Program-made: the position numbers and the translations under genes
Shown: one piece after another, positions 8,611 through 57,057 of the stretch
How positions within the stretch are numbered: position 1 is the stretch's first letter
How the letters are laid out: each line of letters opens with the position of its first letter
Assembly: GCA_964653195.1 (NCBI GenBank)
Contig: CAZZCX010000003.1
Span: 11,688-75,687, forward strand
DNA length: 64,000 bases
DNA from: an uncultured Gammaproteobacteria bacterium
Lineage (GTDB): Bacteria; Patescibacteriota; Microgenomatia; Levybacterales; UBA12049
Direction: 5' to 3'
The notes under the pieces: model-generated
The model's input: only the letters and a program-made list of their open reading frames with translations
Database searches by the model: none
What the model was told of the DNA's origin: nothing

Positions 8611-9287
8611 ATAATGAACTTCGCTATTATTTAAGACGTTTAGTATTGGCTTACTTTAATTTTCGATATTCACAATATTATCATTTAGCGATACCTGTTG
8701 TTTTAGTGTCATTGGGAATTATTCTGCTTGTATCTTTTATTATCCCTCAAATGAATAATTGGTTTTCCGTACAGAATGAAGTGAAATCCACACAAGCAAG
8801 GATAAATACGATAAGACGAAATACAATAGTTCTTGAAAATATCAACAAAGAAAAGATTGAATCTGAATTTATAGTTGCTAATTTAGCATTACCTTCAAGT
8901 AAAGATTTCAGTGGAATTTTAGATTTAATCAATGACACAACTACTAAAAGTGGTATTTCCTTGGATGATTATGAATTTAGCCTGGGGCCAGTTGAAAATA
9001 AAGATAACATAAATAAATCAAAGTCAGAAATCTCAACTATATTATTGAGCTTAAGTATTGAAGGAGATTCAAATGCATTGGGTATTTTTTTATCGGAAAT
9101 AGAAAGCCAGATACCACTAGCACAAATACATTCTGTTAATTACAGTGAAAATAAAGGCCAAATTCAACTATCATTTATAGTTAAATCTTTTGATGATATT
9201 AATTTTCGCTATGATACACCTTTAACAGTTATGAATAATAAACAAAGGAGCCTAATGCAGAAATTGATTACTTGGAATGCTGATTAA
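8607..9287 (+). CDS. pilO: PilO-like bitopic membrane protein
   Basis: A single TM (AIPVVLVSLGIILLVSFII), translationally coupled to pilN by an ATGA overlap. Synteny supports the call. Confidence 0.5.
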   Translation: MNNELRYYLRRLVLAYFNFRYSQYYHLAIPVVLVSLGIILLVSFIIPQMNNWFSVQNEVKSTQARINTIRRNTIVLENINKEKIESEFIVANLALPSSKDFSGILDLINDTTTKSGISLDDYEFSLGPVENKDNINKSKSEISTILLSLSIEGDSNALGIFLSEIESQIPLAQIHSVNYSENKGQIQLSFIVKSFDDINFRYDTPLTVMNNKQRSLMQKLITWNAD

Positions 9288-15250: not shown

Positions 15251-15279
15251 ATAAAAAAACTCCCTTTCGGGAGATGGTT
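15251..15279 (-). terminator. Intrinsic terminator downstream of recG. Read on the minus strand it is CTCCC-GAAA-GGGAG followed by a T-run.
   Basis: Plus-strand aaaaaaactccctttcgggagatgg. The GAAA tetraloop hairpin is followed by T7 on the minus strand. Confidence 0.6.
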
Positions 15280-15436
15280 TATAAAATACATTTTTCCACC
15301 TCCCTAGCTAAAGGTAGCGGATGATGGTGAAAAATTATTTGTTAATTGGACTCTAGTATTCATAGATAATATTTAATCAATTCAAATACTACAAGAGTTT
15401 CAATGGATAGTCAATAGTTATTTATTGTTAGATTTA

Positions 15437-28235: not shown

Positions 28236-29150
28236 TTATAAAACTATCTTAGAAAAGTATGAACGTATTCCTTCTAGGTCTGTACTTTTTTTCAAGTACA
28301 TCATATCGAAAATTTCCATTTCTGATCTAGTTGGAATTGCAGCAGCATTTCCTAGTTTTGTGCATTGTAGACCACCAACAAAATTACCAAAAGTTGCGCA
28401 TTTTATATGATCCCAACCTTTTATAATCCCGTATGCAAATGCACCCCTGTATACATCGCCTGCGCCAACTGTGTCAATTACAGATACATCATACGCCTGG
28501 ATATGGCGCAATGTTTTGCCATCGTATATTAAACTTCCTAATTTACCCGCAGTTATTATAAGCTCTTTACCGTTATATAATTTTTGAATTGATTTCAACA
28601 AATCGTTTGAATCAATTTTTACCAGCGATTCTATAGGGAGTATAGGAAAATCAGCGTTTCGGATCATATCTAATGTAAATTCAGATATTTCAATAGATGG
28701 GTCAATTATTATCTTGGCTTCCAATTTTTTCTTGTCCATAATTTCATAAAACGCTGTTTTTTCATGTCTATCAATAATTATTAAATCGAATTGACGTAAA
28801 AATTTTCTATCAAGGTTTTTGATATCTAAATGAATAGTATTGCCTCGAATTTTCTCTCTCTGCCCTGTATCAATAGGTACTAGTATAGTATTTATCTTCG
28901 TCCTTTTTTGAATTTTATGATGTAATTTTATATTTTCGTGTTTTATAGTTTTTTTTATTATTTTAGCTTCTGAATCTCTCCCAAGAGATGTCACCAGAGT
29001 ACAATCTATATTCAATCTTGAGAGCACAATAAGAGCTGACAGTACGGGACCACCAACATGAGTCTTGGTTTTTATCACTTTTTTCTCCTTTAAATTGTTT
29101 ACCACAATTACTCTATCAATTATTGATTCACCTATGCCTAGTACTTTCAT
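28236..29150 (-). CDS. PfkB-family carbohydrate/nucleoside kinase (ribokinase fold)
   Basis: The PfkB signature DTVGAGDVYRGAF lies near the C-terminus. An N-terminal GG dipeptide region is present. Confidence 0.75.
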   Translation of the reverse strand: MKVLGIGESIIDRVIVVNNLKEKKVIKTKTHVGGPVLSALIVLSRLNIDCTLVTSLGRDSEAKIIKKTIKHENIKLHHKIQKRTKINTILVPIDTGQREKIRGNTIHLDIKNLDRKFLRQFDLIIIDRHEKTAFYEIMDKKKLEAKIIIDPSIEISEFTLDMIRNADFPILPIESLVKIDSNDLLKSIQKLYNGKELIITAGKLGSLIYDGKTLRHIQAYDVSVIDTVGAGDVYRGAFAYGIIKGWDHIKCATFGNFVGGLQCTKLGNAAAIPTRSEMEIFDMMYLKKSTDLEGIRSYFSKIVL

Positions 29151-29165
29151 ATTTATTTTTTAACC

Positions 29166-29192
29166 ACAAAAAAACCTCCCTTTCGGGAGGTC
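29166..29192 (-). terminator. Intrinsic terminator of the thrS-infC-rpmI-rplT operon
   Basis: Plus-strand aaaaaaacctccctttcgggaggtcc. On the minus strand this reads a 7-bp GC stem, a GAAA loop and T7. Confidence 0.7.
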
Positions 29193-29297
29193 CAGTAATC
29201 TGGTTTTCACTAGTGTTTAAGCACTAGCTTTCCTCCCGGGTTGGGAAGTAAAATAAAACCAAAAATATGCAAAAGAGTTAGTCATGTAATTATTATA

Positions 29298-29645
29298 TTA
29301 GTTTGTTTTAATAGAGTCAACTATGTGCTTAAATGTTTTTGCATCGTTGACTAAAATATCATTTAGAATTTTTCGATCAAGTTGTACATTTGCTTTTTTA
29401 AGTGAATCTATAAAGACACTATAAGACATGCCTTCATTTTTTACGGCTTCGCTTAACCGTGTAATCCACAGAGTGCGAAAATTTCTTTTTCTTAATTTTC
29501 TACCATGATAAGAATAAGCATCAGCATGTAAGACAGCTTCCTTAGCTGCTCTTATAAGCTTACTCTTAGTACCCCTATAACCTTTTGTAAGGTCTGCAAG
29601 TTTATTGTGTCTTCGTCTTGATACTATTCCTCTTTTTACTCTCAT
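29298..29645 (-). CDS. rplT: 50S ribosomal protein L20
   Basis: MRVKRGIVSRRRHNKLADLTKGYRG... is a canonical L20 sequence. Confidence 0.9.
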   Translation of the reverse strand: MRVKRGIVSRRRHNKLADLTKGYRGTKSKLIRAAKEAVLHADAYSYHGRKLRKRNFRTLWITRLSEAVKNEGMSYSVFIDSLKKANVQLDRKILNDILVNDAKTFKHIVDSIKTN

Positions 29646-32256: not shown

Positions 32257-32284
32257 TTGACAATTGATGAGATAAATTTATAAT
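32257..32284 (+). promoter_or_regulatory. Sigma-70-like promoter (TTGACA, 16 bp, TATAAT) for the ATP-grasp/M20 operon
   Basis: Exact consensus hexamers with a 16-bp spacer, about 65 bp upstream of the GTG start at 32351. Confidence 0.55.
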
Positions 32285-32350
32285 TACATAATGATTGTGA
32301 AATATGCCGTAAATAATTCAAAGAAACACCTCTCGTAAGGAGGGGTTTTC

Positions 32351-33691
32351 GTGTTATTTAATTACGACCCCTCTGAAGAGGGGTTTTTTAGTGGAATAAA
32401 TATGAAAGAAAAATATAACAGAATAATTGCACATTCATCTGTCGAAGCTTATCGAAATGATGGTGATGATGAAGATAGGTACTATATACCTTGGCGTGTT
32501 GCTGCAGAAGCTGCAGGAAGAATCAAAAACGGCGAAAGAGTACTTACAGTGCTACCTAGAAAGGATAGGTTTAATGAATACCTTACGTTATTAAGTGAGG
32601 TATTACTAAAAGGTACCCCAATACCCATATTGTTTACTCCAGATAATGATTATTTGATGGACGTTGATATAAGACACCATTTATTGCCACAATTGTCGGG
32701 CATGGTAGATAGAGATACCACAGTCATTCCCTATCAAGCAACAAATGAATTTTATGACTGGGCTCAGGTTTTAGAGCAGGAAAAGGGTATAAAAATCTAT
32801 GCAGATCGTAAAAGAGAAGATTTAAGATTCTGGTGGGGTCATAAAGGAGCTTATCATAGATGGATAGATGATATTGAAACTCCATCTCCGTATGAAAATA
32901 TAGGTATTTCTATCCCTAGAGGTTATATAGCTCAGAATTATGAAGAACTTGAAGGTGCCAGAAGTTTATTGGGGTCAGGAATAGTCGTTAAGCCAATTTT
33001 TGGTGCTGGAGGTTTTCAGATTGAGAAATTTGGCGAAACTGAAAATTTATCAGGATATGACTGGCCAATTGATCCACATACTAAAAGAAATATGCCAGTT
33101 GCAGTGCAGGAGTGTTTGCCGATCTCAAATGATATATTTGGCGAGAGAGTCTATTCACACCAGTTTGCAGGACAAAAATTACAAGGACGACTGACAAGGC
33201 AAATTATGGATTCTGATACAGGTAGGCAATGGATAGGCAATAGAATTCCTGCAGGTGTTTCAGTTGATTTCGAACGAAAAGCTGACAGAATGTGTGAGAT
33301 GTTAATAGATCGAATTAATCCTCTTGGTGATGGCGGAATAGATTTAGCTGAAGTATTAGGTGAACCTGTATTGATAGAAGTAAATGGTGGCAGGCCGACA
33401 GGGGCGACAGGTCCTAAGATATTTCAAGCATCTTTTGCTCCTGATGCTCCGCATTTTATTTTTACTAAAGTAGCACCAAATGGCTATTCAGCTCATGATG
33501 CGTGGGACAGTTTGCATAGAGTTACTGGACCTAGATCAAAACGGAAAATAGTTTTTCAAGAAAGAACTAGACGAGGTGTATTCCCAATGGTTTGGTTGAA
33601 TGATTCGTGGGGTATGCTTGCAAGCTTTGGTGATTCATATGAGGAAGCTGACTCGCAGCTAAAACAAGCGCGTGATAAATTAGGAGTATGA
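32351..33691 (+). CDS. ATP-grasp family ligase of unknown specificity. The GTG start at 32351 has an AAGGAGG 7 nt upstream; the alternative ATG is at 32402.
   Basis: ATP-grasp hallmarks are present: IVVKPIFGAGGFQI (the K and glycine-rich loop) and VLIEVNGGRPTG (the C-terminal Mg/ATP site). The roughly 180-aa N-terminal region is unassigned. GC is higher than the neighbours. Confidence 0.6.
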   Translation: MLFNYDPSEEGFFSGINMKEKYNRIIAHSSVEAYRNDGDDEDRYYIPWRVAAEAAGRIKNGERVLTVLPRKDRFNEYLTLLSEVLLKGTPIPILFTPDNDYLMDVDIRHHLLPQLSGMVDRDTTVIPYQATNEFYDWAQVLEQEKGIKIYADRKREDLRFWWGHKGAYHRWIDDIETPSPYENIGISIPRGYIAQNYEELEGARSLLGSGIVVKPIFGAGGFQIEKFGETENLSGYDWPIDPHTKRNMPVAVQECLPISNDIFGERVYSHQFAGQKLQGRLTRQIMDSDTGRQWIGNRIPAGVSVDFERKADRMCEMLIDRINPLGDGGIDLAEVLGEPVLIEVNGGRPTGATGPKIFQASFAPDAPHFIFTKVAPNGYSAHDAWDSLHRVTGPRSKRKIVFQERTRRGVFPMVWLNDSWGMLASFGDSYEEADSQLKQARDKLGV

Positions 33692-34752
33692 ATACAGCAA
33701 TGATTAATTTATTTTTGGACTTAGTTAAAATTGATAGTCCCACTGGAGAGGAAGCAAATGTATTGAAATACGTAAATACATTTCTTAAGAAATTTGGAAT
33801 AAATTCACACTTTGACGATTTCGGTAATTTATATGCAAAGATCGATGGATTTTTAAATCCAATTCTACTTTCTGCACATGCTGATACTGTTGAGCCGGGA
33901 AGAAATATAAAACCGAAGATAATAGACGGAATTATAAAAAGCGATGGGAAAACGATACTTGGTGCGGACAATAAAGTAGGCCTTGCAGTGATTCTTGACA
34001 CAATTCGCGAGCTAATTGAAAAAAAAATACCTCATAGAAATTTAGAATTTGTGGTTACGAGATCTGAAGAATCAGGTAATTATGGAGCTATAAATTTGAA
34101 CTATTCACAAATATCTGCAAAAATCGGTTATATATTTGATAATAGTAACCCAATCGGAACTATAATTTCCGCATCACCCTTTTATTACCGATTTGACATG
34201 AAATTTATTGGTAAAGCTGCGCATGCATCTAGTCCTCAAAAGGCAATTAATATACTACCTGCGTTTTCTGATTTTATAAATTCTATAAAACTTGGAAGAA
34301 TTAATGAACAATTGATAGCCAATATTGGAGTAATAAATTCGGGTCATGTGCGAAATTCAATTCCAGGGGAATTATATATTGAAGGAGAGGTACGGGGGTT
34401 CAAAAACGATGAAGTCCAAGAGTTTTTAAATATACTGATCTTGAATGCAAAAAAATCAGCCTACAAATATGGTTGTAAAATAAAATATGAAACAGTTTGT
34501 GAGAATAGCGGATATATGTATTATAGAAATGATCAGTTTATAAAAGAGACTATAGTAAAAATGAGATTAATAAAGCGTCAATTTAGACTCAAAAAATCCT
34601 TAGGATGTTCAGACGCAAATATTTTTCAGGAACACGGGATAAAGGTGCTAGATTTGGGAGATGGCTCGAAGAATTCACACACAGTAAATGAATCTATAGA
34701 AATTAAAAACTTATTAAATTTGAAAAGTTTACTTATTTCTTTGGTGACCTAA
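33688..34752 (+). CDS. M20-family metallopeptidase (PepT/tripeptidase-like)
   Basis: HADTVEPG and DGKTILGADNKVGLAVIL (metal-binding Asp) and the RSEESGNYGA (Glu-Glu) motif. A 4-nt ATGA overlap with the upstream gene indicates coupling. Confidence 0.7.
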   Translation: MNTAMINLFLDLVKIDSPTGEEANVLKYVNTFLKKFGINSHFDDFGNLYAKIDGFLNPILLSAHADTVEPGRNIKPKIIDGIIKSDGKTILGADNKVGLAVILDTIRELIEKKIPHRNLEFVVTRSEESGNYGAINLNYSQISAKIGYIFDNSNPIGTIISASPFYYRFDMKFIGKAAHASSPQKAINILPAFSDFINSIKLGRINEQLIANIGVINSGHVRNSIPGELYIEGEVRGFKNDEVQEFLNILILNAKKSAYKYGCKIKYETVCENSGYMYYRNDQFIKETIVKMRLIKRQFRLKKSLGCSDANIFQEHGIKVLDLGDGSKNSHTVNESIEIKNLLNLKSLLISLVT

Positions 34753-34762
34753 AATTTCAGAA

Positions 34763-35008
34763 TCACTGGATGCGTATGCTTTGATTATGTTGTAGTACAA
34801 AATCAATAATTTCAGATACAAAAGAACCTACGACCGGCACCAGATTTGCTTGAGTTGCGATAAAGCCAAGAATTGCTACAATTAATGATACGCCGAATGT
34901 AGCACCAAGTCCCCATGCGATTCCACCTATAAAGTTATTAAAAAATATCTCACCTCTGCTTTTATAAATATGATTTGATTTCTCATCTACCATAAAGTAA
35001 TTATTCAA
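34763..35008 (-). CDS. Small membrane protein (two TM segments), function unknown
   Basis: An 81-aa protein with a hydrophobic GGIAWGLGATFGVSLIVAILGFIATQANLVPVVG segment. Confidence 0.4.
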   Translation of the reverse strand: MNNYFMVDEKSNHIYKSRGEIFFNNFIGGIAWGLGATFGVSLIVAILGFIATQANLVPVVGSFVSEIIDFVLQHNQSIRIQ

Positions 35009-35699: not shown

Positions 35700-35703
35700 A
35701 AAG

Positions 35704-35777
35704 TGGGCCCGAGAAGATTCGAACTTCTGACCTTTGCAATGTCAATGCAACGCTCTAACCAACTGAGCTACGAGCCC
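35704..35777 (-). tRNA. tRNA-Val (anticodon GAC)
   Basis: Manual fold of the reverse complement: acceptor GGGCUCG/CGGGCCC, D-loop AGUUGGUUA, anticodon stem UUGCA/UGCAA with loop UUGACAU, and T-arm AGAAG-UUCGAAU-CUUCU. No encoded CCA. Confidence 0.8.
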
Positions 35778-36747: not shown

Positions 36748-37596
36748 TCAAATTAAAGCTCCGATTGAGGCAGGATGATTTATTGTGGTTATTTTAAACT
36801 CTCGTGCTTGCATAAATTTAGGTAGTTTTTTTGAATAATTCTTTGTAACTTGCGGTAACCATGATTCCGCAGATTTAGTTACAGAACCTCCAAATACAAA
36901 CAATTCCGGGTTATAGAAATAAGATAAGTTCACGATAAAGTTACTTAGATAGTTCACATACATAATTACAATATCATTATGTTTTCCATCAAATATTTCT
37001 TCAGGCGGGAGGATTTTACCTGTTTTATAAATACTTAACGACTTTAGACCCTTACCTGCTAAAAGATTATCTGCGGTTTCAAATTGTTTTTTTTCATAAC
37101 TCCAAATATCCATGGGAGATATTTCTCCAGCCATATTACTAGAACCCCTTAAAATAATGCCATTCTCTATAGCAACTACGCGAATACCTGTGCCTAAGTT
37201 TATGTAGACTAAAGAATTATGTTTTTTACCGTACCCATATAATTTTTCTGCTTTTGCCATGCATATAACATCGTTATCTGAATCAAAAGATTTGTAGTTT
37301 AGATACTTGTTTGCAATAGAACTAATATCAACCCCATTTCCTCCGTTTATTAAACTGGAATATATAATTCTGTTATTCATAATCGCACAATTTATACTTA
37401 CACCAAGTTTTTCATATCTTGAACCTCCAAATTCATTAGCTATAAGCACAAAAAGATTTTTAAGATCATTTAAATTTTTATGTTTAAATAAAATCGTAGT
37501 ATCTAGGCGTATTTCTTTTATTATTTCTAGGCTTTTAGTAAATTCTACACAAAGTATTTTTGTACCGCCTATGTCGATGGAGAGAAATTTTTTCAT
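36748..37596 (-). CDS. ROK/BadF-type sugar kinase (ASKHA fold)
   Basis: N-terminal LSIDIGGTKI phosphate-1 motif. GGSVTKS lies near the C-terminus. Confidence 0.6.
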   Translation of the reverse strand: MKKFLSIDIGGTKILCVEFTKSLEIIKEIRLDTTILFKHKNLNDLKNLFVLIANEFGGSRYEKLGVSINCAIMNNRIIYSSLINGGNGVDISSIANKYLNYKSFDSDNDVICMAKAEKLYGYGKKHNSLVYINLGTGIRVVAIENGIILRGSSNMAGEISPMDIWSYEKKQFETADNLLAGKGLKSLSIYKTGKILPPEEIFDGKHNDIVIMYVNYLSNFIVNLSYFYNPELFVFGGSVTKSAESWLPQVTKNYSKKLPKFMQAREFKITTINHPASIGALI

Positions 37597-38741
37597 TTTT
37601 TTATATAATAAAATGGCTTGTTTTCTTTATCTTCTTTCCAGTAGACCCTAATAAATGTTTCCTTCATTCTCAATACATCGATTAGATATTCAATAGTAAA
37701 TATATTTTTTTTCACATGAAAAACAGGGACACCATGATACGGAAGTCGAATACAATTTTTATTTACTGGAATTATACCTAATCGATTTGGTTTAGGAGAA
37801 ACTGAAAGTGTAATTGCGTTAGGTACAGTTTTCTCAATAAAATTTAAGTCATCTCTTACCATTAAGTATGCATGATAGTTTAACAAAGTTTCATGGGTCA
37901 TAGCTTTTATATATTTTCGTATTTTCACTACTTCTGCTGTCGCTATTTTATTTCTGAGTTTTATATTATATACATCCATAAGTACCGAATTAGATACACC
38001 TAGATCTCGTGTATTAATTATTCTAGAAATGGAAAGCTTAGCTCCTTTATATTTTTTTAAAAAGTTTTTATCGGCATTTAGATAAAGGTTTTTAAGTTTA
38101 TTTACTTTTTCACCAAACACATCATTGAAATTATTTATCAGTTGTTCCATACTTTCCAATTCAACTATAAATAGTGAATTATCCCAGTTGAATTTTTTTA
38201 TAATTTCTATTAACAAGTCTTTATATGAATCATACTCAGATTTATCCATCTTGTTATACCTTCCAAATACACCTTCAGTCACAATTGTTATCTTTGCCCC
38301 AGGTTTATAGACCTTGCGAATTAACTCAGTTAGAAAATGTAATCTTTTTAAAGATAAAACTTCTCCCATATCAGGGAGCGATCGATTAGTTTTTATTGGA
38401 ACAGGCATTTTAAACGGAAAACCAAGAATTGTCAGCTGTATTGGTTTATTTTGATTTATAAAATATTGAAATGATTCTAGCCAGAAATCAGTGTTGTCAA
38501 TAACAAATTTTTTAGGCCCAAAAATAATTTCATCATCTACGAAAATATTTAGAATTTTTTCAGCGATAGAATTACCACTTAGAATTAATTCTGGATAAGA
38601 TAAAGAAGATAGTAGATCTTTCAAGTTTTCTGTAGAAGCTAATCGGTTCGGTTTAAATACCGCTTTAATTTGCTTCTTAGATAAATCCATGAAGTTCGTA
38701 CTTGGATAAACATATGGATTTGATTTCATTTTCATATTCAT
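37593..38741 (-). CDS. Uncharacterized enzyme-like protein, distant paralog of the upstream 435-aa ORF
   Basis: It shares a conserved block with 38741-40048: LSLKRLHFLTELIRKVYKPGAKITIVTEG versus AEFEMLRYQAVMGRVAKEIGLNINFTIVDET. It is coupled to both neighbours by overlapping stop/start codons. Confidence 0.35.
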   Translation of the reverse strand: MNMKMKSNPYVYPSTNFMDLSKKQIKAVFKPNRLASTENLKDLLSSLSYPELILSGNSIAEKILNIFVDDEIIFGPKKFVIDNTDFWLESFQYFINQNKPIQLTILGFPFKMPVPIKTNRSLPDMGEVLSLKRLHFLTELIRKVYKPGAKITIVTEGVFGRYNKMDKSEYDSYKDLLIEIIKKFNWDNSLFIVELESMEQLINNFNDVFGEKVNKLKNLYLNADKNFLKKYKGAKLSISRIINTRDLGVSNSVLMDVYNIKLRNKIATAEVVKIRKYIKAMTHETLLNYHAYLMVRDDLNFIEKTVPNAITLSVSPKPNRLGIIPVNKNCIRLPYHGVPVFHVKKNIFTIEYLIDVLRMKETFIRVYWKEDKENKPFYYIKK

Positions 38742-40048
38742 TATTTATTATTTCTTATTCTTCCAAGCATAGGTTTGTTATCTAGATAAACCAATTGCGC
38801 TTCGCAGACATTTTGCATTTCCTGAAGCACATTAAATGGGATATTTCCGACATAATCATTATTGGAACCGTACCCAGCTATTCCATGCATAGGATTGACA
38901 GTTCTTCCCATAAATTTAGTTGGATGAGGTAGAAAGCTCCACCTATGTGTACTTCTCGTTACGCCTCCATAAACTCTACTCTCGTCTTGATATTCGGGAT
39001 ATTCTGCGGTTAAGCCTTTTTCTTGTACAGCTTGCTTTGCTTTACCCCTCAAAGCCATCATAGCATCTATATGCGTAGTTAAACCAGTTAAATATTGAAG
39101 TGTTTCTTGAGGTAAACTGCCGAAATCGCCACTCATTGCAGATTTTCTAATATAATCTATTGCATCAGGATCTACTCCTTGTGCAATTAAGCCACTGTCG
39201 GGGATGCAATCTAAGAGGGTGTATATCCTTCTCATAAGAGCATTGTTTTGTCTGGGTTCTTTTAATAGTCCAGCAGTTTTATCTTTAGATAAAATTAACT
39301 GGTCTTCATATGCAGCGTGGAATTCATCTCCAATAGGAAGAGCTATTGAATCCCTTAGAGACCTAATACGAATTCGGTCTGAAACTCCTTGTTCTTCTAA
39401 GTATCTAGTTGCAATTAAACGGTTTACTTTAGAATCACTATTATTAAAACCTAAATACGGATCTTCGGGTAATATATCTGTTTCGTCAACGATTGTAAAA
39501 TTTATATTTAAGCCAATTTCCTTTGCTACTCTTCCCATCACTGCTTGATATCTTAACATTTCAAATTCTGCATAATCTATCTTAGTATCTGGAGAGCCTG
39601 TTCTACTAGGCGATTGTGTTTTGCTCAAAGCATAATATTGAACCAGATTTACTCCTATTCCGTTGGCCGCTCGTTCACAAAAATGAGTTATATCTTCTTC
39701 TGTCGGTTTATATGCATCATTCCCGGTGGCGACCCAAGGTTTTATAAATTCAGAATAAAAAGCTCCTGCGACTTTAACTGTGGAATTTGCTGATTCTCTA
39801 ACTCTTACAGGCAATCCTTTTCTCATTTCCTTAATATTTAATCTTTTTTCAATTACCTCAAGCCGTTTGCTTACTTCATCGTCAATATCAAAGGTATTTA
39901 AACCTTCTTTTTTAGCGACTCGTTGTAAATCAAAGTAATATAAATCAGCAGTTCTCTCTTCTTCCGAACGTTTTAAATCTGGACCGAATAATAAATCGCC
40001 TCGCCTAGAATGTGTTATTGGTTTATTTCTTTCAATCGACATAACCAT
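38741..40048 (-). CDS. Uncharacterized enzyme-like protein (435 aa), with non-K/N-rich composition and higher GC than the background
   Basis: A long ORF with no family recognised by eye. Its start is immediately preceded by a hairpin and T7. Confidence 0.35.
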   Translation of the reverse strand: MVMSIERNKPITHSRRGDLLFGPDLKRSEEERTADLYYFDLQRVAKKEGLNTFDIDDEVSKRLEVIEKRLNIKEMRKGLPVRVRESANSTVKVAGAFYSEFIKPWVATGNDAYKPTEEDITHFCERAANGIGVNLVQYYALSKTQSPSRTGSPDTKIDYAEFEMLRYQAVMGRVAKEIGLNINFTIVDETDILPEDPYLGFNNSDSKVNRLIATRYLEEQGVSDRIRIRSLRDSIALPIGDEFHAAYEDQLILSKDKTAGLLKEPRQNNALMRRIYTLLDCIPDSGLIAQGVDPDAIDYIRKSAMSGDFGSLPQETLQYLTGLTTHIDAMMALRGKAKQAVQEKGLTAEYPEYQDESRVYGGVTRSTHRWSFLPHPTKFMGRTVNPMHGIAGYGSNNDYVGNIPFNVLQEMQNVCEAQLVYLDNKPMLGRIRNNK

Positions 40049-40226
40049 AAAAAAACCCGCCTATTGGCGGGGATCCTTTCTTTTGGTTGATACCAAAAAT
40101 CCTCCCGCCCTTAGGGGGTAATAAGGAGGACAAAAATCATGTTTAATGCGTGTTTCATAAAACCAGAAATTTATTCTAGCACATCATTAATTGCATGACA
40201 AGTATTTATTTGAATATGAAAAATCT

Positions 40227-41063
40227 TTATGTAAAAATTACTTGTGAGCTAGGCGTTAGTCCAAATTCCTTCGCAGCACTTTCTCCTTGAATCACAAGCT
40301 CAATAAATCGTTTATCTTTATACCCAGAGCTTCCGAGAATTAGCGCTTTATTACCATTAGGTACGTCTCTGAGCCTGGTAAAGCATTTAAATACACCTAA
40401 ATTGGTGTTTATATCTTTTCCATTTTCAAATTCGATTTCTTTCGGAAGAATAGTTGTTTTACAGTTTCCGAAATTATCGACGTACCAAATGGCACTCTTT
40501 ACTTGAGGTACATGGCTAAGGGTGTAGGATGCAGCAGGTACGGTTATCCCGTCCACCAGCCATTTTGCTACTCTTGGCTGGAATTCAAAGCTTCGGAACT
40601 GAGTATTTATTATTTGCATAGCTAGGACGACTGAGATGATTTTATCCTCTGCCATTTTATTTGCGACTTCGGGTATATCTAGCAGTTGAATAGAATTTAT
40701 AAGTCTAAGTTTTTTCACCATTGATAATGTTAACCCATCAATTGTTGAAATAACGAGCGTATCATTGATGTAGAAATATCCAAAAGGAGTGCCGTTAGGC
40801 CATTTTTTCCCCTTGCCATGGCGATTGGCTACGTTTACAAGTATTATTCCTTTTTCGCCATTTGCTGCATCCAGTGTGTCTATAAGGCATCCGGCTGCTT
40901 GGTATTCTGCGGGGTCATGAGAATTATTAGATACAAGATTTCCTCCTACTCCAATTATCGTTGGAGATATTCCGAAAAGTGAACTCACTCTCGTCCCAAG
41001 TCTGGCTTTTACGTTCTCATCGAAGCAATCGTTAATTATAGTAATAAATCTCGTTTTTTCCAT
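40227..41063 (-). CDS. DUF62 / S-adenosyl-L-methionine hydroxide adenosyltransferase-like protein (the fluorinase/chlorinase SalL fold family)
   Basis: The C-terminal IWYVDNFGNCKTTI resembles the D.FGN..TNi motif of the SAM-hydrolase C-domain. The N-terminal ITIINDCFD and the central YFYINDTLVISTIDGLTLS resemble the TDFG and PDNGLLS blocks. The match is by eye only. Confidence 0.45.
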   Translation of the reverse strand: MEKTRFITIINDCFDENVKARLGTRVSSLFGISPTIIGVGGNLVSNNSHDPAEYQAAGCLIDTLDAANGEKGIILVNVANRHGKGKKWPNGTPFGYFYINDTLVISTIDGLTLSMVKKLRLINSIQLLDIPEVANKMAEDKIISVVLAMQIINTQFRSFEFQPRVAKWLVDGITVPAASYTLSHVPQVKSAIWYVDNFGNCKTTILPKEIEFENGKDINTNLGVFKCFTRLRDVPNGNKALILGSSGYKDKRFIELVIQGESAAKEFGLTPSSQVIFT

Positions 41064-41248
41064 AAAAAAACCTCCTTTCGGAGGCTGTTCGTAATAGATA
41101 CTATAACGAAACCTCCGTTAGGAAGTCATCATTTCCATCATATTTACTGAATAAATTTTCATATAGATTACTCTACTTTATATACGATTTTAATATCAAA
41201 TTCAATAAGCAAATTGAGTTAATTTTGAATTCTGAATTCTAAATTCTA

Positions 41249-42805: not shown

Positions 42806-42916
42806 AGTTTAATATGTGCGGGCGAGAGGATCCTTCGACTATGCTCAGGATCTAACTTACCAGCTTTTTTTCAGTTTCCTCAAATTTAAAACTTCGACTC
42901 TGAGTTTATCGAAGAG

Positions 42917-42997
42917 TGCGGGCGAGAGGACTCGGACCTCCACGGATTTCTCCACAAGGTCCTAAACCTTGCGTGTATACCATTTCACCACGCCCGC
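42917..42997 (-). tRNA. tRNA-Leu (anticodon UAG)
   Basis: Reverse complement: acceptor GCGGGCG/CGCCCGC, anticodon stem CAAGG/CCUUG with loop UUUAGGA, and a long variable arm. Confidence 0.7.
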
Positions 42998-43243
42998 AGG
43001 TATATGTCCTCGTCTTCCCTAGGCAAGCTTATTTATTATAAAACATTTTAGACTAAATGAAAATAGATGTATATTTAAATGTATCTAGGTTTACAAAATT
43101 GATTTGAGGATACAATATGGAGTTTTTCCACAAAAAATAGGATCGCCTCAGGTTTGGGCTGAGGCCATCCTATCTAGGCGTGAGTATAGCATTTAACTAT
43201 AGGTTTGTCAAGTAGCAATTTATGATGTTTTTAATACGATTCT

Positions 43244-43822
43244 TTACTGCATTTTTTCCATGAAGTGGTTTACGGAGCGAGCCCAGCTACCATTACTGGA
43301 TGGAGTGTACATGCTCATAATCTGTTCTGGTGTTATAAGTCCCCGATCTCGGTATTTTGTCGCCAACGTTTTTGTTACAGTTTCTATAGCTTGAGGATAA
43401 TTCTCAAATCTGGTTACTTTACCGCCATAAATTCCAAATCCCCAGCAATTATGAGAATCTATAGGAATTTTTTTACATAGATTTGATTCCTGCATTGCTA
43501 TTGCCGGTATTAAGCGAAAATCCATTTCATAATTATCAGCTGTTTGGACTATGAATTCAGCATGAGGCTCAAGCGGTGAATTGTATTTTGAGAGGAATTG
43601 TCTGACCGTTTCTATCCTTCCTTCCTTCAAAATTATGTTACCTGAAAAATTACTTGAAGATGAAGGAAGCGCAGCATATGTAAATGCATTTACTTTTTTG
43701 TCATTTGCATAAACCAATCGATCAGTATCTCTTGGGATTGTGGTTAAGAGGAAAATAAGAGTGAAAAGAAATAAAAATGGCGCTATAAAAGAAAACGTTA
43801 CAAGCAGAATAACTTTTCTCAT
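43244..43822 (-). CDS. Membrane-anchored peptidoglycan hydrolase-like protein (lysozyme/glucosaminidase-type domain)
   Basis: An N-terminal TM. AIAMQESNLCKKIP...CWGFGIYGG resembles the catalytic-Glu region of lytic transglycosylase or glucosaminidase folds. Confidence 0.45.
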   Translation of the reverse strand: MRKVILLVTFSFIAPFLFLFTLIFLLTTIPRDTDRLVYANDKKVNAFTYAALPSSSSNFSGNIILKEGRIETVRQFLSKYNSPLEPHAEFIVQTADNYEMDFRLIPAIAMQESNLCKKIPIDSHNCWGFGIYGGKVTRFENYPQAIETVTKTLATKYRDRGLITPEQIMSMYTPSSNGSWARSVNHFMEKMQ

Positions 43823-43936
43823 CCACTTTATACTTACAAATATTTATCTAGTTGTCAAGTTTTGCGATCAATTTATGAAAAAGATGATATATTTAATTGT
43901 GTGACATAAGATCGTTTGTTACAATACAAATTGCTC

Positions 43937-44022
43937 GCCCTGGTGGTGGAATGGTAGACGCGCTGGCTTCAGGTGCCAGTGTCCGCAAGGACATGGGAGT
44001 TCAAGTCTCCCTCAGGGCACCA
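43937..44022 (+). tRNA. tRNA-Leu (anticodon CAG), CCA encoded
   Basis: Acceptor GCCCUGG/UCAGGGC, anticodon stem CUGGC/GCCAG with loop UUCAGGU, a long variable arm, and T-arm GGGAG-UUCAAGU-CUCCC. Confidence 0.8.
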
Positions 44023-44136
44023 GTTTTGCAACGCAAAATACTTTAAACTTATGACTTAAAACTATATTAAAAATAAGTTATAATGCATTAAGTTCTAAGT
44101 TTATAGTTCATTGTTATTTTTACCTTTTAAAAATAC

Positions 44137-44219
44137 GCGGATGTGGTGAAATGGTATACACGCAGCCTTGAGGTGGCTGTGCCGTAAAAAGCGTGGAGGT
44201 TCAAGTCCTCTCATCCGCA
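44137..44219 (+). tRNA. tRNA-Leu (anticodon GAG)
   Basis: Acceptor GCGGAUG/CAUCCGC, anticodon stem CAGCC/GGCUG with loop UUGAGGU, and a long variable arm. Confidence 0.75.
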
Positions 44220-44223
44220 CAAA

Positions 44224-44297
44224 GGACGATTAGCTCAGCTGGCTAGAGCGCTTCATTTACACTGAAGAAGTCGGGGGTTCAAATCCCTCATCGTCCA
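44224..44297 (+). tRNA. tRNA-Val (anticodon UAC)
   Basis: Acceptor GGACGAU/AUCGUCC, anticodon stem CUUCA/UGAAG with loop UUUACAC, and T-arm GGGGG-UUCAAAU-CCCUC. Confidence 0.8.
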
Positions 44298-44302
44298 CTA
44301 TA

Positions 44303-44569
44303 ATGCCTTACGTTTATATTTTATTAAGCGAAAAGTACAATACATATTATATTGGGAGTACTAAAGATCTTATTCGTAGGTTAAAAGAACATACCTCAGG
44401 TGCATCAAGATTTACAAAGTATAGACTCCCACTTCGCCTGGTTTTTAGTCAAAAGTATCCAGATATAAAAAATGCCAGATCTGTCGAGAATTGGATTAAA
44501 AAACAAAAAGATAGGAAATTATTAATTAATATAATTAAAGAAGGTAAGATAAATAAAGAATTTGTATAG
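44303..44569 (+). CDS. GIY-YIG nuclease domain protein (88 aa)
   Basis: YVYILLS...YYIGSTKDLIRRLKEH...ENW matches the GIY-YIG core (GIY, YIG, Arg, Glu, Asn). Confidence 0.75.
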   Translation: MPYVYILLSEKYNTYYIGSTKDLIRRLKEHTSGASRFTKYRLPLRLVFSQKYPDIKNARSVENWIKKQKDRKLLINIIKEGKINKEFV

Positions 44570-44591
44570 AGCGGTCCGGTGTACACCGGAC

Positions 44592-44624
44592 AAGTCGGGG
44601 GTTCAAATCCCTCATCGTCCACTA
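44592..44624 (+). repeat. 33-bp perfect direct repeat of the tRNA-Val(UAC) 3' end (copy 2; copy 1 is 44268-44300)
   Basis: aagtcgggggttcaaatccctcatcgtccacta is identical at both sites, bracketing the GIY-YIG ORF. Confidence 0.9.
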
Positions 44625-44660
44625 TTTGTAAACTTATTTGTAAATACAATAGTAAATAGA

Positions 44661-45566
44661 TCAAGTGGGTTGAACGCAGACTCTATTCGTAATAAGACTT
44701 ATTATATTCGTTAGCTGATTATTGACAGGTGCATGAAAGTAATCGTTTGGACCTGAAGCCACATTTCTCATCATATTTTGAAGTTTGTCATTTAATTTTG
44801 CATCTGCATGATCATCAGTAAAGGCGATTGTAAATATTCTAGTCCCATTGGCTTTTATTCTCGCTGCTACATCGGTTGGATCTTGATTGGTATCAAAACA
44901 CCGACATGCACTTGCAGCCAGTGGATGTCTCATACAGTATTCACCATTCTGACCCCCGGGGCACAGATTATTCATTTGGCGTGATTCGGGTATTCCATCA
45001 GATATAAATACTAATGAGAATTGGAAATCAGGAAATAAACCTTTTCCTAGGTTGATATTTCTTTCAGCGACAAGGAAAGCATCCCTGCTGTGAGTAGCTG
45101 TCTGTGGGCCCATAGCGCTAACTTCTTCGAGAAAAAGCGTTTTAGATTCATTAAAAATAGAAAAAGGTACCCTTTCTCGTACTTGTTCGCTATATGTCTG
45201 CATGGCGATTGCTCCTGTTGGCGGAAAATATTCCGCAAAAGTACGCAGTGCTGTCTTTAATTGGTCAATTTTCGAATCAGGTTCACCGAATTGCATAGAT
45301 CCTGAATTATCTATAAGAAAGTTTATAGCAGTTTTGTTTTTGCATTGAAGCACTCCAAAGGTACCTAATTGCAACCCTTCCTGCGTAGTGCTTCCTGTTC
45401 CGAAAAGTTCTGTCTCGTATGTGCCTTGATTTGTAAATGGTGACAGTCGTGTGAATACTCCTCCTGCCAGAGCAAATGCCAATATTAAGATCAAAATAAC
45501 AATAAAGTCTCCGCTTATTAGATTGCGTCTTTTTTTACCTTGATTTATATTTATACTTCCTGACAT
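44661..45566 (-). CDS. von Willebrand factor A (VWA) domain protein with an N-terminal TM anchor
   Basis: MIDAS motif DNSGSM. A later TIAFTDDHAD segment fits the VWA fold. Confidence 0.65.
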   Translation of the reverse strand: MSGSININQGKKRRNLISGDFIVILILILAFALAGGVFTRLSPFTNQGTYETELFGTGSTTQEGLQLGTFGVLQCKNKTAINFLIDNSGSMQFGEPDSKIDQLKTALRTFAEYFPPTGAIAMQTYSEQVRERVPFSIFNESKTLFLEEVSAMGPQTATHSRDAFLVAERNINLGKGLFPDFQFSLVFISDGIPESRQMNNLCPGGQNGEYCMRHPLAASACRCFDTNQDPTDVAARIKANGTRIFTIAFTDDHADAKLNDKLQNMMRNVASGPNDYFHAPVNNQLTNIISLITNRVCVQPT

Positions 45567-45572
45567 AGCTTA

Positions 45573-45938
45573 TTATAAAGGTTGTGGTCCAGGTGGTTTA
45601 GGTTTCTTGGTCGGCTTACTACCGCCGTTGTTATTTCCATTATTATTTTCGTCGTCATCATCCGGGGTTCTGGTAGGTCTTGGTGTAGGGGTGACAGTGA
45701 CTACGATAAACGTACACGCATGTAGATTGTCTCCCTTACAGCTTGGATCAGGAATAGTTATGTATTCGGTGGTGATTCGAGTCCGGGGAGTGTTAGGTAT
45801 GAACAAAAAACCACCAATAACAAGGCTACCTGCTGCTATTGCGAGTATTATACTTATCCACCCTATTCCTTTTGCTTTTAGAATTTTCTTATTTTTTATG
45901 TGTTTAGTTTTATTTTTTAAACTTATTTTTTTTCTCAT
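45573..45938 (-). CDS. Small membrane-anchored protein with a Pro/Thr/Asn-rich low-complexity tail
   Basis: A TM segment WISIILAIAAGSLVIGGFLF is followed by TVTPTPRPTRTPDDDDENNNGNNNGGSKPTKKPKPPGPQPL. Confidence 0.4.
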   Translation of the reverse strand: MRKKISLKNKTKHIKNKKILKAKGIGWISIILAIAAGSLVIGGFLFIPNTPRTRITTEYITIPDPSCKGDNLHACTFIVVTVTPTPRPTRTPDDDDENNNGNNNGGSKPTKKPKPPGPQPL

Positions 45939-46036
45939 CTAATTAAAGAGTAGATGAGCATTTTATTAAAGTCAAGTAAACTCTAAGCATATTGTCATAC
46001 GTCAGTAAAATTGCTATTATAAGTTGGTTCAGAAAT

Positions 46037-46109
46037 GCCGAGGTAGCCAAGGTGGTCACGGCGGGTGTCTGAAGAACATCAGATATGTGTTCAACTCACA
46101 TCCTCGGCA
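46037..46109 (+). tRNA. tRNA-Phe (anticodon GAA)
   Basis: Acceptor GCCGAGG/CCUCGGC, anticodon stem GGUGU/ACAUC with loop CUGAAGA, and T-arm AUGUG-UUCAACU-CACAU. Confidence 0.65.
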
Positions 46110-46229
46110 CTTAAAATATAATTGATTTCTGTATATTATTTGTTTGAAAATTAAAAGAATCTGATTACTTTTTATCAAAGTGGAGAGATTTTTGCATCAA
46201 AAATATAGTATTCCTGCTAAATTTTTTTA

Positions 46230-46967
46230 CTACTGAGGTGTTGTACCGTATATAGTTATTAGAGTTCCTGGTGTTTCCTTAGTCGCATATGTGACATTTT
46301 TTGTACTGGGAGGATTTGCCCAATTATAAAGTTTCGCGACGTCTTCTTCTCGCATATTCACACATCCATGACTCATAGGATTTCCGAAATTATTATGCCA
46401 GTAAGCGCCATGTATCCCATATCCTTTACTTTTTGGTACTTTGTCATTATAGAAAAACATTGTGTAGGGTACATTGGGTAAGTTATAATAATTTGCGCCT
46501 GTTCCTCCCTGCATGCGGGTATAGCGGAGCTTTATCCAAATACGAAAATCACCAGTTGGAGTTGGCCACCAGGGTTTTCCTGAAGAAATCGTGAATTCAT
46601 GGATTAGTGTATTATTTTCGAAGGCGTACAATTTTTGTTTACTTAAGTCGACATAGATCCGCTTACTGTCTTCCGCCGTATCTCCAAGGACATTATTATT
46701 CACAGCAATTTTATATGGTTTGTCAGCTAACGCTGGACCAGCGATTTTTTTGCCTTCAAATTGCCCAGTGTTGTCATCTGAATAGTGGCCTGATAAATCA
46801 GAGATACAGCTTATGCTATTTGCACAATCGAGGTCATTTGTTGGTTTAGATGGGAGAAGTAGAATTGAGAAAATGCTTATGAAAAGTAGAGAAAATATAA
46901 GAATCAACTTTCTTTTATGATATAACAGTCCTTTCACCTTTTTATTTTTATTGTTTTTTCGAGGCAT
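46230..46967 (-). CDS. L,D-transpeptidase (YkuD domain), N-terminally anchored
   Basis: Catalytic motif SHGCVNM (His, Gly, Cys) near the C-terminus. Confidence 0.75.
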   Translation of the reverse strand: MPRKNNKNKKVKGLLYHKRKLILIFSLLFISIFSILLLPSKPTNDLDCANSISCISDLSGHYSDDNTGQFEGKKIAGPALADKPYKIAVNNNVLGDTAEDSKRIYVDLSKQKLYAFENNTLIHEFTISSGKPWWPTPTGDFRIWIKLRYTRMQGGTGANYYNLPNVPYTMFFYNDKVPKSKGYGIHGAYWHNNFGNPMSHGCVNMREEDVAKLYNWANPPSTKNVTYATKETPGTLITIYGTTPQ

Positions 46968-47067
46968 ACATATAGCGTAGGAAAAAAATAATTGTTTGTA
47001 AAGAAGGAAATTTATCTAATAAAATAAATCTATTAATTTAGAATAAAAATATAATTATGAGTTTGTG

Positions 47068-47139
47068 AGCGGTGGACCGGATTTGAACCGGCGACCTCGT
47101 CCTTGGCAAGGACGCATTCTACCACTGAACTACCACCGC
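47068..47139 (-). tRNA. tRNA-Gly (anticodon GCC)
   Basis: Reverse complement: acceptor GCGGUGG/CCACCGC, anticodon stem CGUCC/GGACG with loop UUGCCAA, and T-arm GCCGG-UUCAAAU-CCGGU. Confidence 0.75.
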
Positions 47140-57031: not shown

Positions 57032-57057
57032 AAAAACCCCTTTTAAAAGGGGTTTTT
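57032..57057. terminator. Perfectly palindromic hairpin flanked by A-run and T-run (bidirectional terminator)
   Basis: aaaaaccccttttaaaaggggttttt. Confidence 0.6.

Follow-up and report, generated by a model that had tools for sequence, protein, structure and literature searches.

The operon described here encodes an ATP-grasp ligase and a PepT-like M20 metallopeptidase, and lies in a stretch of 64,000 nucleotides (nt) of contig CAZZCX010000003.1 from an uncultured bacterium (the window; positions are those of this stretch unless a related locus is named). It is probably under the control of a lysine-responsive, ribosome-mediated transcription attenuator of the trp/thr/phe type. The leader between its promoter and the ligase gene contains a short open reading frame (ORF) with tandem Lys codons, a terminator and an alternative antiterminator pairing. 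This anatomy is conserved in relatives, the alternative structures are recovered in constrained folds, and the neighbourhood of the orthologous genes is linked to lysine. We infer that the leader ORF is translated, that ribosomes stall at its Lys codons and that stalling results in read-through into the operon. Their co-regulation suggests that the two enzymes are part of a lysine-starvation response.

The threonyl-tRNA synthetase encoded in the window has its best named relatives, with 65-68% identity, in Levybacteria, Roizmanbacteria, Woesebacteria, Microgenomates and the 'Patescibacteria group', and related loci come from 0.1-µm filtrates of aquifers and from the ACD Rifle data set. These relatives point to a Microgenomates-type bacterium of the Patescibacteria or Candidate Phyla Radiation (CPR). 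Regulation has hardly been explored in this group, whose members cannot be cultivated on their own. A search of the literature returned nothing that links CPR bacteria with leader-peptide attenuation, and a search for a lysine leader peptide returned nothing usable.

Promoter, hairpins and start of the ligase gene

A promoter with a 12/12 match precedes the operon on the plus strand, with TTGACA at 32257..32262, a 16-nt spacer and TATAAT at 32279..32284. It is the only perfect TTGACA-N16-18-TATAAT sequence in the window, where 0.09 would be expected from shuffled sequences. Two hairpins follow on the same strand. The weaker one (hairpin 1) is ACCTCTC-GTAAG-GAGGGGT at 32328-32346, and the stronger one, GACCCCTC-TGAA-GAGGGGTT at 32366-32385, runs into a T6 tract at 32384-32389. 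Promoter and hairpins had been pointed out in an earlier note on this DNA, and all three were recovered. Four terminator-like matches were present in the 4-kb region, compared with 1.7 ± 1.4 in shuffles. The upstream neighbour, thrS, is divergent and has its own promoter-like site on the minus strand, so that the hairpins cannot be the thrS terminator.

Downstream, two long ORFs (32351..33691 and 33688..34752) overlap by ATGA, as had also been noted, position 33688 falling within the first of them. The start that ORF callers assign to this first ORF is the GTG at 32351..32353 (plus strand), 7 nt downstream of the motif AAGGAGG (32337-32343), which would give the N-terminal peptide MLFNYDPSEEGFFSGIN. 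A word-indexed search of 5.8 billion proteins yielded 15 relatives of the ligase, which were then aligned. Fourteen of them start at the residue equivalent to ATG 32402, which is M18 of the GTG ORF. The exception is a 98%-identical strain, for which the public gene call (P0001) uses the GTG and predicts 446 residues. Residues 1-17 of the GTG ORF aligned to nothing in the orthologues, P0005 having a short non-conserved N-terminal extension of its own, and the leaders upstream of the other ligase genes contain no equivalent of the in-frame GTG.

Judged by this alignment, the true start of the ligase gene is ATG 32402 (32402..33691, plus strand, 429 residues) and the 446-residue call is a gene-start error, of which the 17 extra codons are leader RNA including the terminator. 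With this start both hairpins lie in a 5' leader of approximately 110 nt, the second of the two placements considered in the earlier note, whose proposal of GTG initiation is given up because the orthologues outside the near-identical strain do not begin at 32351. It also follows that AAGGAGG is not the ribosome-binding site of the ligase. The motif is located where it had been reported, but it belongs to the 3' arm of hairpin 1 and is not assigned the role of a Shine-Dalgarno sequence.

That the gene nevertheless begins at GTG 32351, with AAGGAGG as its ribosome-binding site and an intragenic hairpin that modulates early elongation or initiation, is extremely improbable. The 7-nt spacing of AAGGAGG from an in-frame GTG and the automatic call in the near-identical strain agree with such an arrangement, but the 14 orthologues start where ATG 32402 is, no counterpart of the 17 extra residues was found in the alignment, the other leaders have no equivalent in-frame start, and a U6-tailed terminator in codons 6-13 would abort transcription of the gene itself.

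A higher GC content of the two genes relative to their flanks, another claim of the earlier note, is not borne out, or weakly at most. The GC fraction is 0.37-0.40 in the ligase gene versus 0.35-0.40 in the adjoining thrS, and that of the peptidase gene (33688..34752, plus strand, 354 residues) is 0.30-0.33, equal to or under that of the flanks.

A short open reading frame with tandem lysine codons

An ORF of 15 codons (MIVKYAVNNSKKHLS) begins 6 nt past the -10 hexamer and occupies 32291..32338 on the plus strand, with its TAA stop codon (32336-32338) in the loop of hairpin 1. Its codons 11 and 12 are the tandem Lys codons AAG AAA (32321..32326), the proposed sensing site. Four segments of the same strand can pair in two ways. 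Segment R1 (ACCTCTC, 32328..32334) is the 5' arm of hairpin 1 and lies within the final leader codons, and R2 (GGAGGGGT, 32339..32346), which includes 'AAGGAGG', serves either hairpin 1, as its 3' arm, or the antiterminator, as its 5' arm. Segment R3 (GACCCCTC, 32366..32373) is the 5' arm of the terminator, and R4 (GAGGGGTT, 32378..32389) runs into the T6 tract. R1 and R3 are rich in C, R2 and R4 in G. Pairing of R1 with R2 and of R3 with R4 gives hairpin 1 and the terminator (8 bp, 5 of them GC, loop TGAA), whereas in the alternative pairing, of R2 with R3, the 5' arm of the terminator is taken up into an antiterminator. The earlier note had suggested that the hairpin could be an attenuator; the leader ORF with its Lys codons and the antiterminator pairing, both of which are absent from that note, bear the suggestion out.

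In the proposed mechanism transcription would start approximately 6 nt past the -10 box, at or beside the AUG of the leader ORF, and the leader RNA would consist of R1, overlying the last leader codons, R2, R3, and R4 into U6, with the R2:R3 antiterminator excluding the R3:R4 terminator. When Lys-tRNA(Lys) is ample, the ribosome would run on to the stop codon within the hairpin 1 loop and cover R2, R3:R4 would form and RNA polymerase would stop at 32389. When Lys-tRNA(Lys) is scarce, the ribosome would stall on codons 11-12 and cover R1 only. R2 would then pair with R3, no terminator would form and the operon would be transcribed.

All retrievable loci that encode relatives of the ligase were compared (they are referred to by L-numbers). 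Within the clade of 49-61% identity, a leader was found in every distinct member with upstream sequence except P0007 (L014/L015), in which lysS, the gene for lysyl-tRNA synthetase (LysRS), directly precedes the ligase gene and no leader is present. The seven leaders are those of the window, L001, L010, L013, L011, L012 and L005. Each has a sigma-70-like promoter and an ATG at 6-14 nt past the -10 box that lacks a Shine-Dalgarno sequence, followed by a short ORF, hairpin 1 and, after a spacer, a GC hairpin that runs into U6-7. The ORF has 15-16 codons in six of them, the peptides being MIVKYAVNNSKKHLS in the window, MNIMNNNGAVKKNLS in L001, MLNTNTNTTVKKNLS in L010, MKNLHLGNKSKKQTLY in L013, MKSFIVVNVNKKKLR in L011 and MRHQKSIQKLKKQAS in L005, and it has 24 codons in L012 (MTMKLTVLVKKSKKNPLMRGFCLG). 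A KK pair is present at codons 11-12 in six leaders, and L012 has KK-S-KK. In six of the seven, the ORF ends within the hairpin 1 loop.

The N-terminal parts of the leader peptides are unrelated in sequence, and AAGAA is invariant in the alignment of the leader DNA (A2). In six leaders the distance from the ATG to KK is 30 nt, whereas the distance from the promoter to the ATG varies. This is to be expected of a translated ORF and not of a non-coding spacer. Lysine accounts for 38 of the 158 residues in nine leaders of the Lys type, compared with 7.9% in the proteins of the window (P = 4e-10). The window leader ORF is probably leaderless or nearly so, judging from its distance to the -10 box. 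A spacing of 6-7 nt between the -10 box and the ATG recurs in L012, in the Phe leader of L001 and in the pfkB leader of the window (see below).

In the clade of 39% identity no leader stands immediately 5' of the ligase gene, because the gene follows lysS or a decarboxylase gene there. Lys-rich leader ORFs with a terminator are found instead at the start of the operon, in L007 (lysS-ligase-M20; 9 Lys in 25 codons) and in L020 (decarboxylase-ligase-M20-lysS; 5 Lys in 27 codons), and no such leader was found in L003, L014, L016, L017 or L018.

Alternative structures of the leader RNA

The MAFFT alignment A2 misregistered the helices, and folds constrained for each sequence, together with shuffles, were used instead of column covariation. 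In these folds the stretch under a ribosome, namely the A-site codon plus 12 nt, was blocked. R2:R3 formed in seven of seven leaders, with free energies (dG) of -10.1 to -20.1, when the ribosome was placed on K11 or K12, R1 being masked, and R4 was treated as still untranscribed. The antiterminator of the window (32339..32374, plus strand) consists of GGAGGGG:CCCCUCU and an inner helix, UCGUG:UACGA, and has a dG of -15.4 kcal/mol. R2:R3 segments folded better than dinucleotide shuffles (z = -2.3 to -4.4; for the window z = -2.97, 200 shuffles). When the full leader was folded with the ribosome on K11/K12, the antiterminator was the minimum free energy (MFE) structure in four of the seven (window, L011, L012 and L005); for the window terminator, dG values of approximately -13.5 to -13.9 were obtained. 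With the ribosome moved to the stop codon, R2 was covered and the terminator formed in all seven.

The spacer between the two hairpins differs in sequence from lineage to lineage, yet in each leader it forms an inner helix stacked on R2:R3, as in L001 (CUGUUGU:ACAAUAG). Reading of the L005 sequence revealed a double change from A:U to U:A that retains R2:R3 (9 bp) and introduces a U.U mismatch in R1:R2. Maintenance of both the R2:R3 complementarity and the spacer helix is not demanded of two independent terminators.

These observations bear on the possibility that the leader contains constitutive tandem terminators, or specifies a small RNA (sRNA) of approximately 60-100 nt, without any switch, and that the ligase gene is expressed by leak-through or from another start. 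A consensus promoter followed within approximately 100 nt by canonical terminator features would fit such an arrangement, for which the attenuator-derived sRNAs known in other bacteria, such as rnTrpL, offer a precedent (PMC6614838). We regard it as quite unlikely, since it needs neither the R2:R3 complementarity nor a contiguous spacer helix, and yet both have been kept in seven divergent leaders. Nor does it require an in-frame ORF of fixed length, and there is no promoter-like site in the 12 nt between the terminator and ATG 32402.

RNA switches that bind a metabolite or a protein (a riboswitch, or a T-box-, TRAP- or PyrR-like element) also use alternative terminator and antiterminator structures, and in such a switch the small ORF would be incidental. 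Rfam searches of the window and 19 loci at the gathering threshold gave no match to the leaders, including the lysine riboswitch (RF00168) and the T-box (RF00230), neither of which was among the matches with E<=10 in the leader. The Rfam matches that the leader did give, His and Phe leaders being among those considered, were below threshold, at chance level and in some cases on the wrong strand. The approximately 45 nt upstream of R1 are too short for a T-box or an L-box and lack conservation at the RNA level, in contrast to the reading frame and KK. An RNA switch of this kind is therefore very unlikely. Of the defining features of a leader-peptide attenuator, the promoter-proximal short ORF, its tandem codons, the intrinsic terminator and, in the computed folds, the antiterminator switch were all found.

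Lysine genes around the orthologous ligase genes

A class II LysRS scoring above its NCBIfam cut-off flanks or follows the ligase in L003, L013, L014, L016, L017, L018 and L020, and in L013 and L020 two copies of class II LysRS flank the ligase/M20 pair. LysRS in L005 and L007 was added by tblastn. Behind KK leaders the gene string is ligase-M20-LysRS(class II) in L013 (8393..9886), ligase-M20-LysRS(class I) in L012 (2655..3731; TIGR00467, 268 bits versus a cut-off of 148) and ligase-LysRS(class I) in L011 (7295..8104). The occurrence of two non-homologous types of LysRS in the same leader-controlled operon is hard to explain except via lysine.

Aspartate kinase adjoins the ligase cluster in L013, L005 and L014. 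In L005 (672..780) and L014 (7263..7433) its gene has a consensus promoter, a leader and a terminator of its own, and the leader peptides (MNLELKTKKTKTLQ and MDLILKNTKKATKTLPLG) have interleaved Lys and Thr codons. Such multivalent logic is expected for aspartate kinase, the enzyme common to Lys and Thr. In L005 the aspartate kinase is split into two ORFs (192 and 140 residues), probably by an assembly frameshift.

Occasional further neighbours of the ligase are a Lys/Orn-decarboxylase-like protein, a DapF-like protein, a class-III aminotransferase and an HDAC-like hydrolase. A radical S-adenosylmethionine (SAM) protein next to the L018 ligase was considered as a lysine 2,3-aminomutase and rejected, as it gave only sub-cut-off matches of the SPASM/AhbD type of radical SAM proteins. 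A small gene for a DUF5665 membrane protein is found near the ligase operon in the three closest genomes (window 34763..35008, minus strand; L001 4310..4528; L010 141..368). Its proximity may be functional or may simply be due to synteny.

Leaders of the same design upstream of other genes

A scan of the window for perfect-stem hairpins followed by at least five T residues gave 11 matches at 10 distinct sites. Five of these are leaders of the attenuator design, and they account for five of the approximately seven credible intrinsic terminators in the window.

A Met-rich leader (MKIYSVNMMEMMTS; 41162..41064, minus strand) precedes an ORF for a protein of 278 residues (40227..41063, minus strand). 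Met is found at codons 8, 9, 11 and 12. Hairpin 1 has the stop codon in its loop and is followed by the terminator AGCCTCC-GAAA-GGAGGTT-T7 (41086..41069). In masked folds the antiterminator formed for stalls at M8-M12 and the terminator from codon 13 onwards. The 278-residue protein matched SAM_HAT_C in Pfam with 30.9 bits, over the C-terminal domain only, and had no match in NCBIfam. We take this SAM hydroxide adenosyltransferase family to cleave S-adenosylmethionine to adenosine and methionine. To our knowledge, no methionine leader-peptide attenuator has been described.

A second leader (MNTRVQLTNNFSPSSATFS; 15363..15253, minus strand) lies before the ORFs 13194..15095 and 12106..13191 (both minus strand), which encode a SerB-SerA fusion (phosphoglycerate dehydrogenase, 608 bits) and a class-V aminotransferase that is SerC-like. 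Its R1 (CCATCATCC) contains Pro-Ser-Ser codons and is followed by R2 (GGGAGGTGG), R3 (CCATCTCCC) and the terminator CTCCC-GAAA-GGGAG-T7. From its sequence it looks like a serine attenuator of a serine-synthesis operon.

An aromatic-rich leader (MTNSFAYFWFYFTSQPGRKASA; 29320..29151, minus strand) is situated between rplT and a gene for a ribokinase-like PfkB kinase (28236..29150, minus strand). It has the arrangement TTGACT-17-TATAAT-6-ATG and the terminator GACCTCCC-GAAA-GGGAGGTT-T7, and its antiterminator formed with the ribosome on codons 6-12. The remaining leader is hydrophobic, of the Ile/Leu/Val/Phe type (MKHALNMIFVLLITP; 40158..40049, minus strand; terminator CCCGCC-AATA-GGCGGG-T7), and precedes the ORF 38741..40048 (minus strand). 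This ORF encodes a protein of 435 residues without a match in Pfam, NCBIfam or the PDB sequences, and is followed by a PvcA/DIT1-like ORF (37593..38741, minus strand) that is unusual for a CPR genome. In masked folding, a stall-dependent switch was observed in the Met, Ser and hydrophobic leaders.

Two further leaders are present in L001 (664..820 and 8440..8710), MIRQAVNFFFFFTPLAGR and MSKSVFGTTTTTTLS, with runs of TTTTTT and FFFFF among them. On this contig, which carries the closest orthologue of the ligase, MIRQAVNFFFFFTPLAGR precedes a protein of 566 residues, and MSKSVFGTTTTTTLS (15 codons, stop codon in the loop of hairpin 1) precedes a protein of 594 residues just downstream of the ligase/M20 pair. 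Neither protein matched Pfam or the PDB sequences, the 594-residue protein did not match NCBIfam either, and the 435-, 566- and 594-residue proteins showed no homology to each other or to the ligase. The L001 runs resemble those of pheL and thrL, which makes it unlikely that these leaders are generic hairpins only.

Weighing of the proposed lysine attenuator

Several observations do not sit easily with attenuation by lysine. L001, L010 and L013 keep the terminator as the MFE structure even with a stalled ribosome, so that the switch would there have to be kinetic. The leader ORFs lack a Shine-Dalgarno sequence, and leaderless or short-leader initiation is required; as the distance from the -10 box to the ATG is 9-14 nt in four of the seven leaders, the AUG is perhaps not exactly 5'-terminal in these. 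The leader ORF of L012 reads beyond hairpin 1, where the removal of one A from a run of five would restore KKTL followed by a stop codon. The geometry also differs in L007 and L020, in which the stop codon is located beside or within the terminator. No lysine gene was found in the 64-kb window by tblastn with, among others, lysS of class I and II, aspartate kinase, the DapF-like protein and the decarboxylase. As the window operon is also without LysRS, its relevance to lysine rests on the orthologous loci.

Three more such points would equally suit a translation-coupled attenuator that senses ribosome availability or the coupling of transcription to translation, and in which the Lys codons are incidental. 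The sensor has only two Lys codons (compare the Trp codons of trpL). The U-rich flank on the 3' side of hairpin 1 pairs with the AAGAAR purine tract, and RNA structure could thus help to conserve the tract. Finally, two window leaders, the aromatic one before the PfkB kinase and the hydrophobic one before the 435-residue protein, have codon biases without an obvious tie to the downstream gene. Against a non-specific sensor stand the differing residue runs (KK, MMEMM, PSS, TTTTTT, FFFFF and the K/T mix) in leaders of the same design, several of which fit the downstream LysRS, aspartate kinase, SAM-cleaving family protein or SerA/B/C, and the position of KK, in frame and at a fixed distance from the ATG in six of seven leaders. 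We consider it unlikely that the sensor is non-specific.

The ligase and the peptidase

The identification of the first gene product as an ATP-grasp protein, made in the earlier note, is upheld by a match to Pfam ATP-grasp_3 with 23.2 bits, exactly at the cut-off, and by an AlphaFold (AF2) model with an ATP-grasp ligase fold (mean predicted local distance difference test score, pLDDT, 88; predicted template modelling score, pTM, 0.86). A pre-ATP-grasp-like N-terminal part is followed by the ATP-grasp core. K197 and E326-V-N328, the latter within LIEVNGGRPTG, are invariant in alignment A3 (numbering from ATG 32402). The invariance of the ATP-binding Lys and of the E-x-N motif makes an active ligase probable.

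The best Foldseek matches of the model were BesA (8yi6) and PGM1-type ligases (3wvq, 8ynd), with E-values of 2e-17 to 3e-15 and a probability of 1.00. They extend over the whole chain including the N-terminal domain (template modelling, TM, score 0.64-0.71), with a sequence identity of 13-16%. PurK and biotin carboxylase were weaker structural matches. Among the PDB sequences no match to the ligase was better than E 0.002, and that one covered 43 residues. The families to which the note had proposed alignment, RimK and cyanophycin synthetase, are not the closest ones. The best NCBIfam score of the RimK/LysX and MptN group was that of MptN, which we take to be RimK-like (19 bits versus a cut-off of 350), and RimK-type proteins were not in the top 50 folds. 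Cyanophycin synthetase reached E 0.4 in a PDB profile search and was likewise not among the top 50 fold matches.

An exhaustive profile search of 1.84 billion representatives yielded 253 cluster representatives, of which two belong to the close group (clusters at 50% identity). Remote relatives (P0016, P0017, P0020, P0022 and P0042) are proteins of 1000-2000 residues, and P0016, P0017, P0020 and P0022 are fused to domains of the amidohydrolase superfamily. By analogy, the fusions echo the pairing of ligase and M20. In one distant relative the fusion partner is a RING finger, a hint of eukaryotic origin.

For the second gene product, the assignment to the M20 peptidases was equally borne out, the PepT-like subfamily being the probable one. 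Its matches to Peptidase_M20 (45.7 bits) and M20_dimer (34 bits) are both over the Pfam cut-offs, and it scored 226.8 bits with the PepT-like family TIGR01883, below the cut-off of 274.25. Its nearest solved structures are 3gb0 (E 1.7e-51) and 3rza (E 1.9e-48), and the H-x-D and E-E metal and catalytic motifs are present in the translation (HAD, SEESG). Equivalence to LysK, DapE or ArgE was considered and rejected, as the scores were below the cut-offs (51.5 versus 363 for [LysW]-lysine hydrolase, and at best 94 of 289 bits for DapE) and PepT-like scored best.

The two genes are co-conserved, as the note had anticipated for a functional pair: of the 15 distinct loci whose sequence continues past the ligase, 13 have a PepT-like M20 in the ligase gene string. 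Between these two genes, L003, L018 and L019 have another M20, which is DapE-like. The note had suggested that such a pair may make and trim a small peptide or poly-amino-acid. The fold of the ligase is nearest to ligases of amino acids and peptides, and the strongest link given by the genomes is to lysine (LysRS, aspartate kinase), which the note had not foreseen. Co-regulation with LysRS under a lysine-starvation switch argues that the pair raises the supply of lysine. Based on this co-regulation, the two probably supply or salvage lysine, one as an amide ligase and the other as an amide hydrolase. Our preferred guess, offered with low confidence and by analogy to LysX/LysK, ArgX/ArgE and BesA, would be a protecting group that is installed by the ligase and removed by the M20 enzyme.

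Comparison with known systems

In the Proteobacteria, leader-peptide attenuators are known as trpL, thrL, pheL/pheST, hisL, leuL and ilvL. The trpL peptide of Escherichia coli has 14 codons, with two Trp codons that are followed by three codons and the stop. Such attenuators of amino-acid operons have been reviewed (PMC3082878; PMC6614838). The present leader shares with the trpL/thrL/pheL class a short ORF with tandem codons of the controlled amino acid, and with the trpL class the mutually exclusive structures, 1:2 and 3:4 (terminator with U-tract) versus 2:3 (antiterminator). Also as in trpL, the sensing codons are located a few codons before the stop and, in the orthologous loci, the genes appear to be tied to the same amino acid and include an aminoacyl-tRNA synthetase, as in pheST. 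Unlike the proteobacterial examples, it is found in a Microgenomates-like genome of the Patescibacteria/CPR, its ORF starts 6-14 nt after the -10 box without a Shine-Dalgarno sequence, the hairpin 1 loop contains the stop codon of that ORF, and lysine would be the residue sensed. In contrast to textbook biosynthetic operons, an uncharacterised ligase/peptidase pair is controlled.

The usual RNA controls of lysC and of lysS/lysK are the lysine riboswitch (L-box) and the Lys T-box. With these the present system has in common that lysine or Lys-tRNA status would control aspartate kinase and LysRS, with an intrinsic terminator in the leader as output. It differs from them in that no family match was found, and in that the proposed sensor is a translating ribosome and not the binding of a ligand or tRNA.

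The lysine (alpha-aminoadipate) cluster of Thermus thermophilus is said to be subject to attenuation by a leader with lysine codons, described in 2005 in the Journal of Biological Chemistry, and reportedly also has an ATP-grasp ligase, LysX, and an M20 hydrolase, LysK. That cluster belongs to another phylum, and the ligase of the window is not RimK/LysX-like. None of the set LysZ, LysY, LysJ and LysW accompanies the ligase in the gene tables, no search aimed at a LysW-like carrier having been made. The AA_kinase neighbours of the ligase are aspartate kinases, and no semialdehyde dehydrogenase was found in the gene tables.

A ligase/amidohydrolase pair in the context of lysine recalls LysX/LysK and ArgX/ArgE (ATP-grasp plus M20) as well as DapD/DapE. 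Unlike in LysX/LysK and DapE, the M20 enzyme scores far below the LysK and DapE cut-offs and the ligase is not RimK-like; unlike in pathways of the LysX/LysK type, a carrier protein or intermediate enzymes are not conserved in the operon. BesA is the gamma-glutamyl ligase of the beta-ethynylserine pathway and makes the dipeptide substrate of BesE. BesE, which follows BesA in that pathway, acts on gamma-L-glutamyl-L-propargylglycine (bioRxiv 10.1101/2025.10.10.681649). The likeness of the ligase to BesA and PGM1 concerns the whole-chain fold and, at the identity given above, is a structural resemblance only.

If the leaders have been read correctly, a textbook enterobacterial mechanism works repeatedly in minimal CPR genomes, with at least five leaders in 64 kb. 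The mechanism itself is known; its repeated use in a CPR genome and the assignment of specificity to enzymes are new. A leader peptide names the amino acid to which an operon answers, and thereby provides a functional handle on unannotated proteins. In the present case it ties a very rare ATP-grasp family to lysine.

A wider proposal is possible, if rather doubtful as a whole: the pair would be an unrecognised CPR route of lysine supply and, at the same time, leaderless-ORF attenuation would be the main amino-acid sensor of the lineage. If this were true, the pair may be an ATP-driven, coenzyme A-independent 'protect and deprotect' branch in place of steps of the DapD/DapE type, or it might turn diaminopimelate or peptide-bound precursors into lysine, being induced together with LysRS. 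The codon runs would then assign specificity: the ligase would answer to Lys, the SAM-cleaving family protein to Met, the 594-residue protein to Thr, the 566-residue protein to Phe and the 435-residue protein possibly to Ile/Leu/Val.

Other features of the window

A palindromic perfect hairpin, AACCCCTTTTAAAAGGGGTT, is located at 57035..57054, between an ORF of 167 residues and a response-regulator/histidine-kinase pair. It has T-runs on both strands and looks like an ordinary bidirectional terminator. Six tRNA genes (three for Leu and one each for Val, Phe and Gly) are clustered at 42916..47139, and a tRNA-Val gene at 35703..35777 adjoins a gene for an HD-domain protein.

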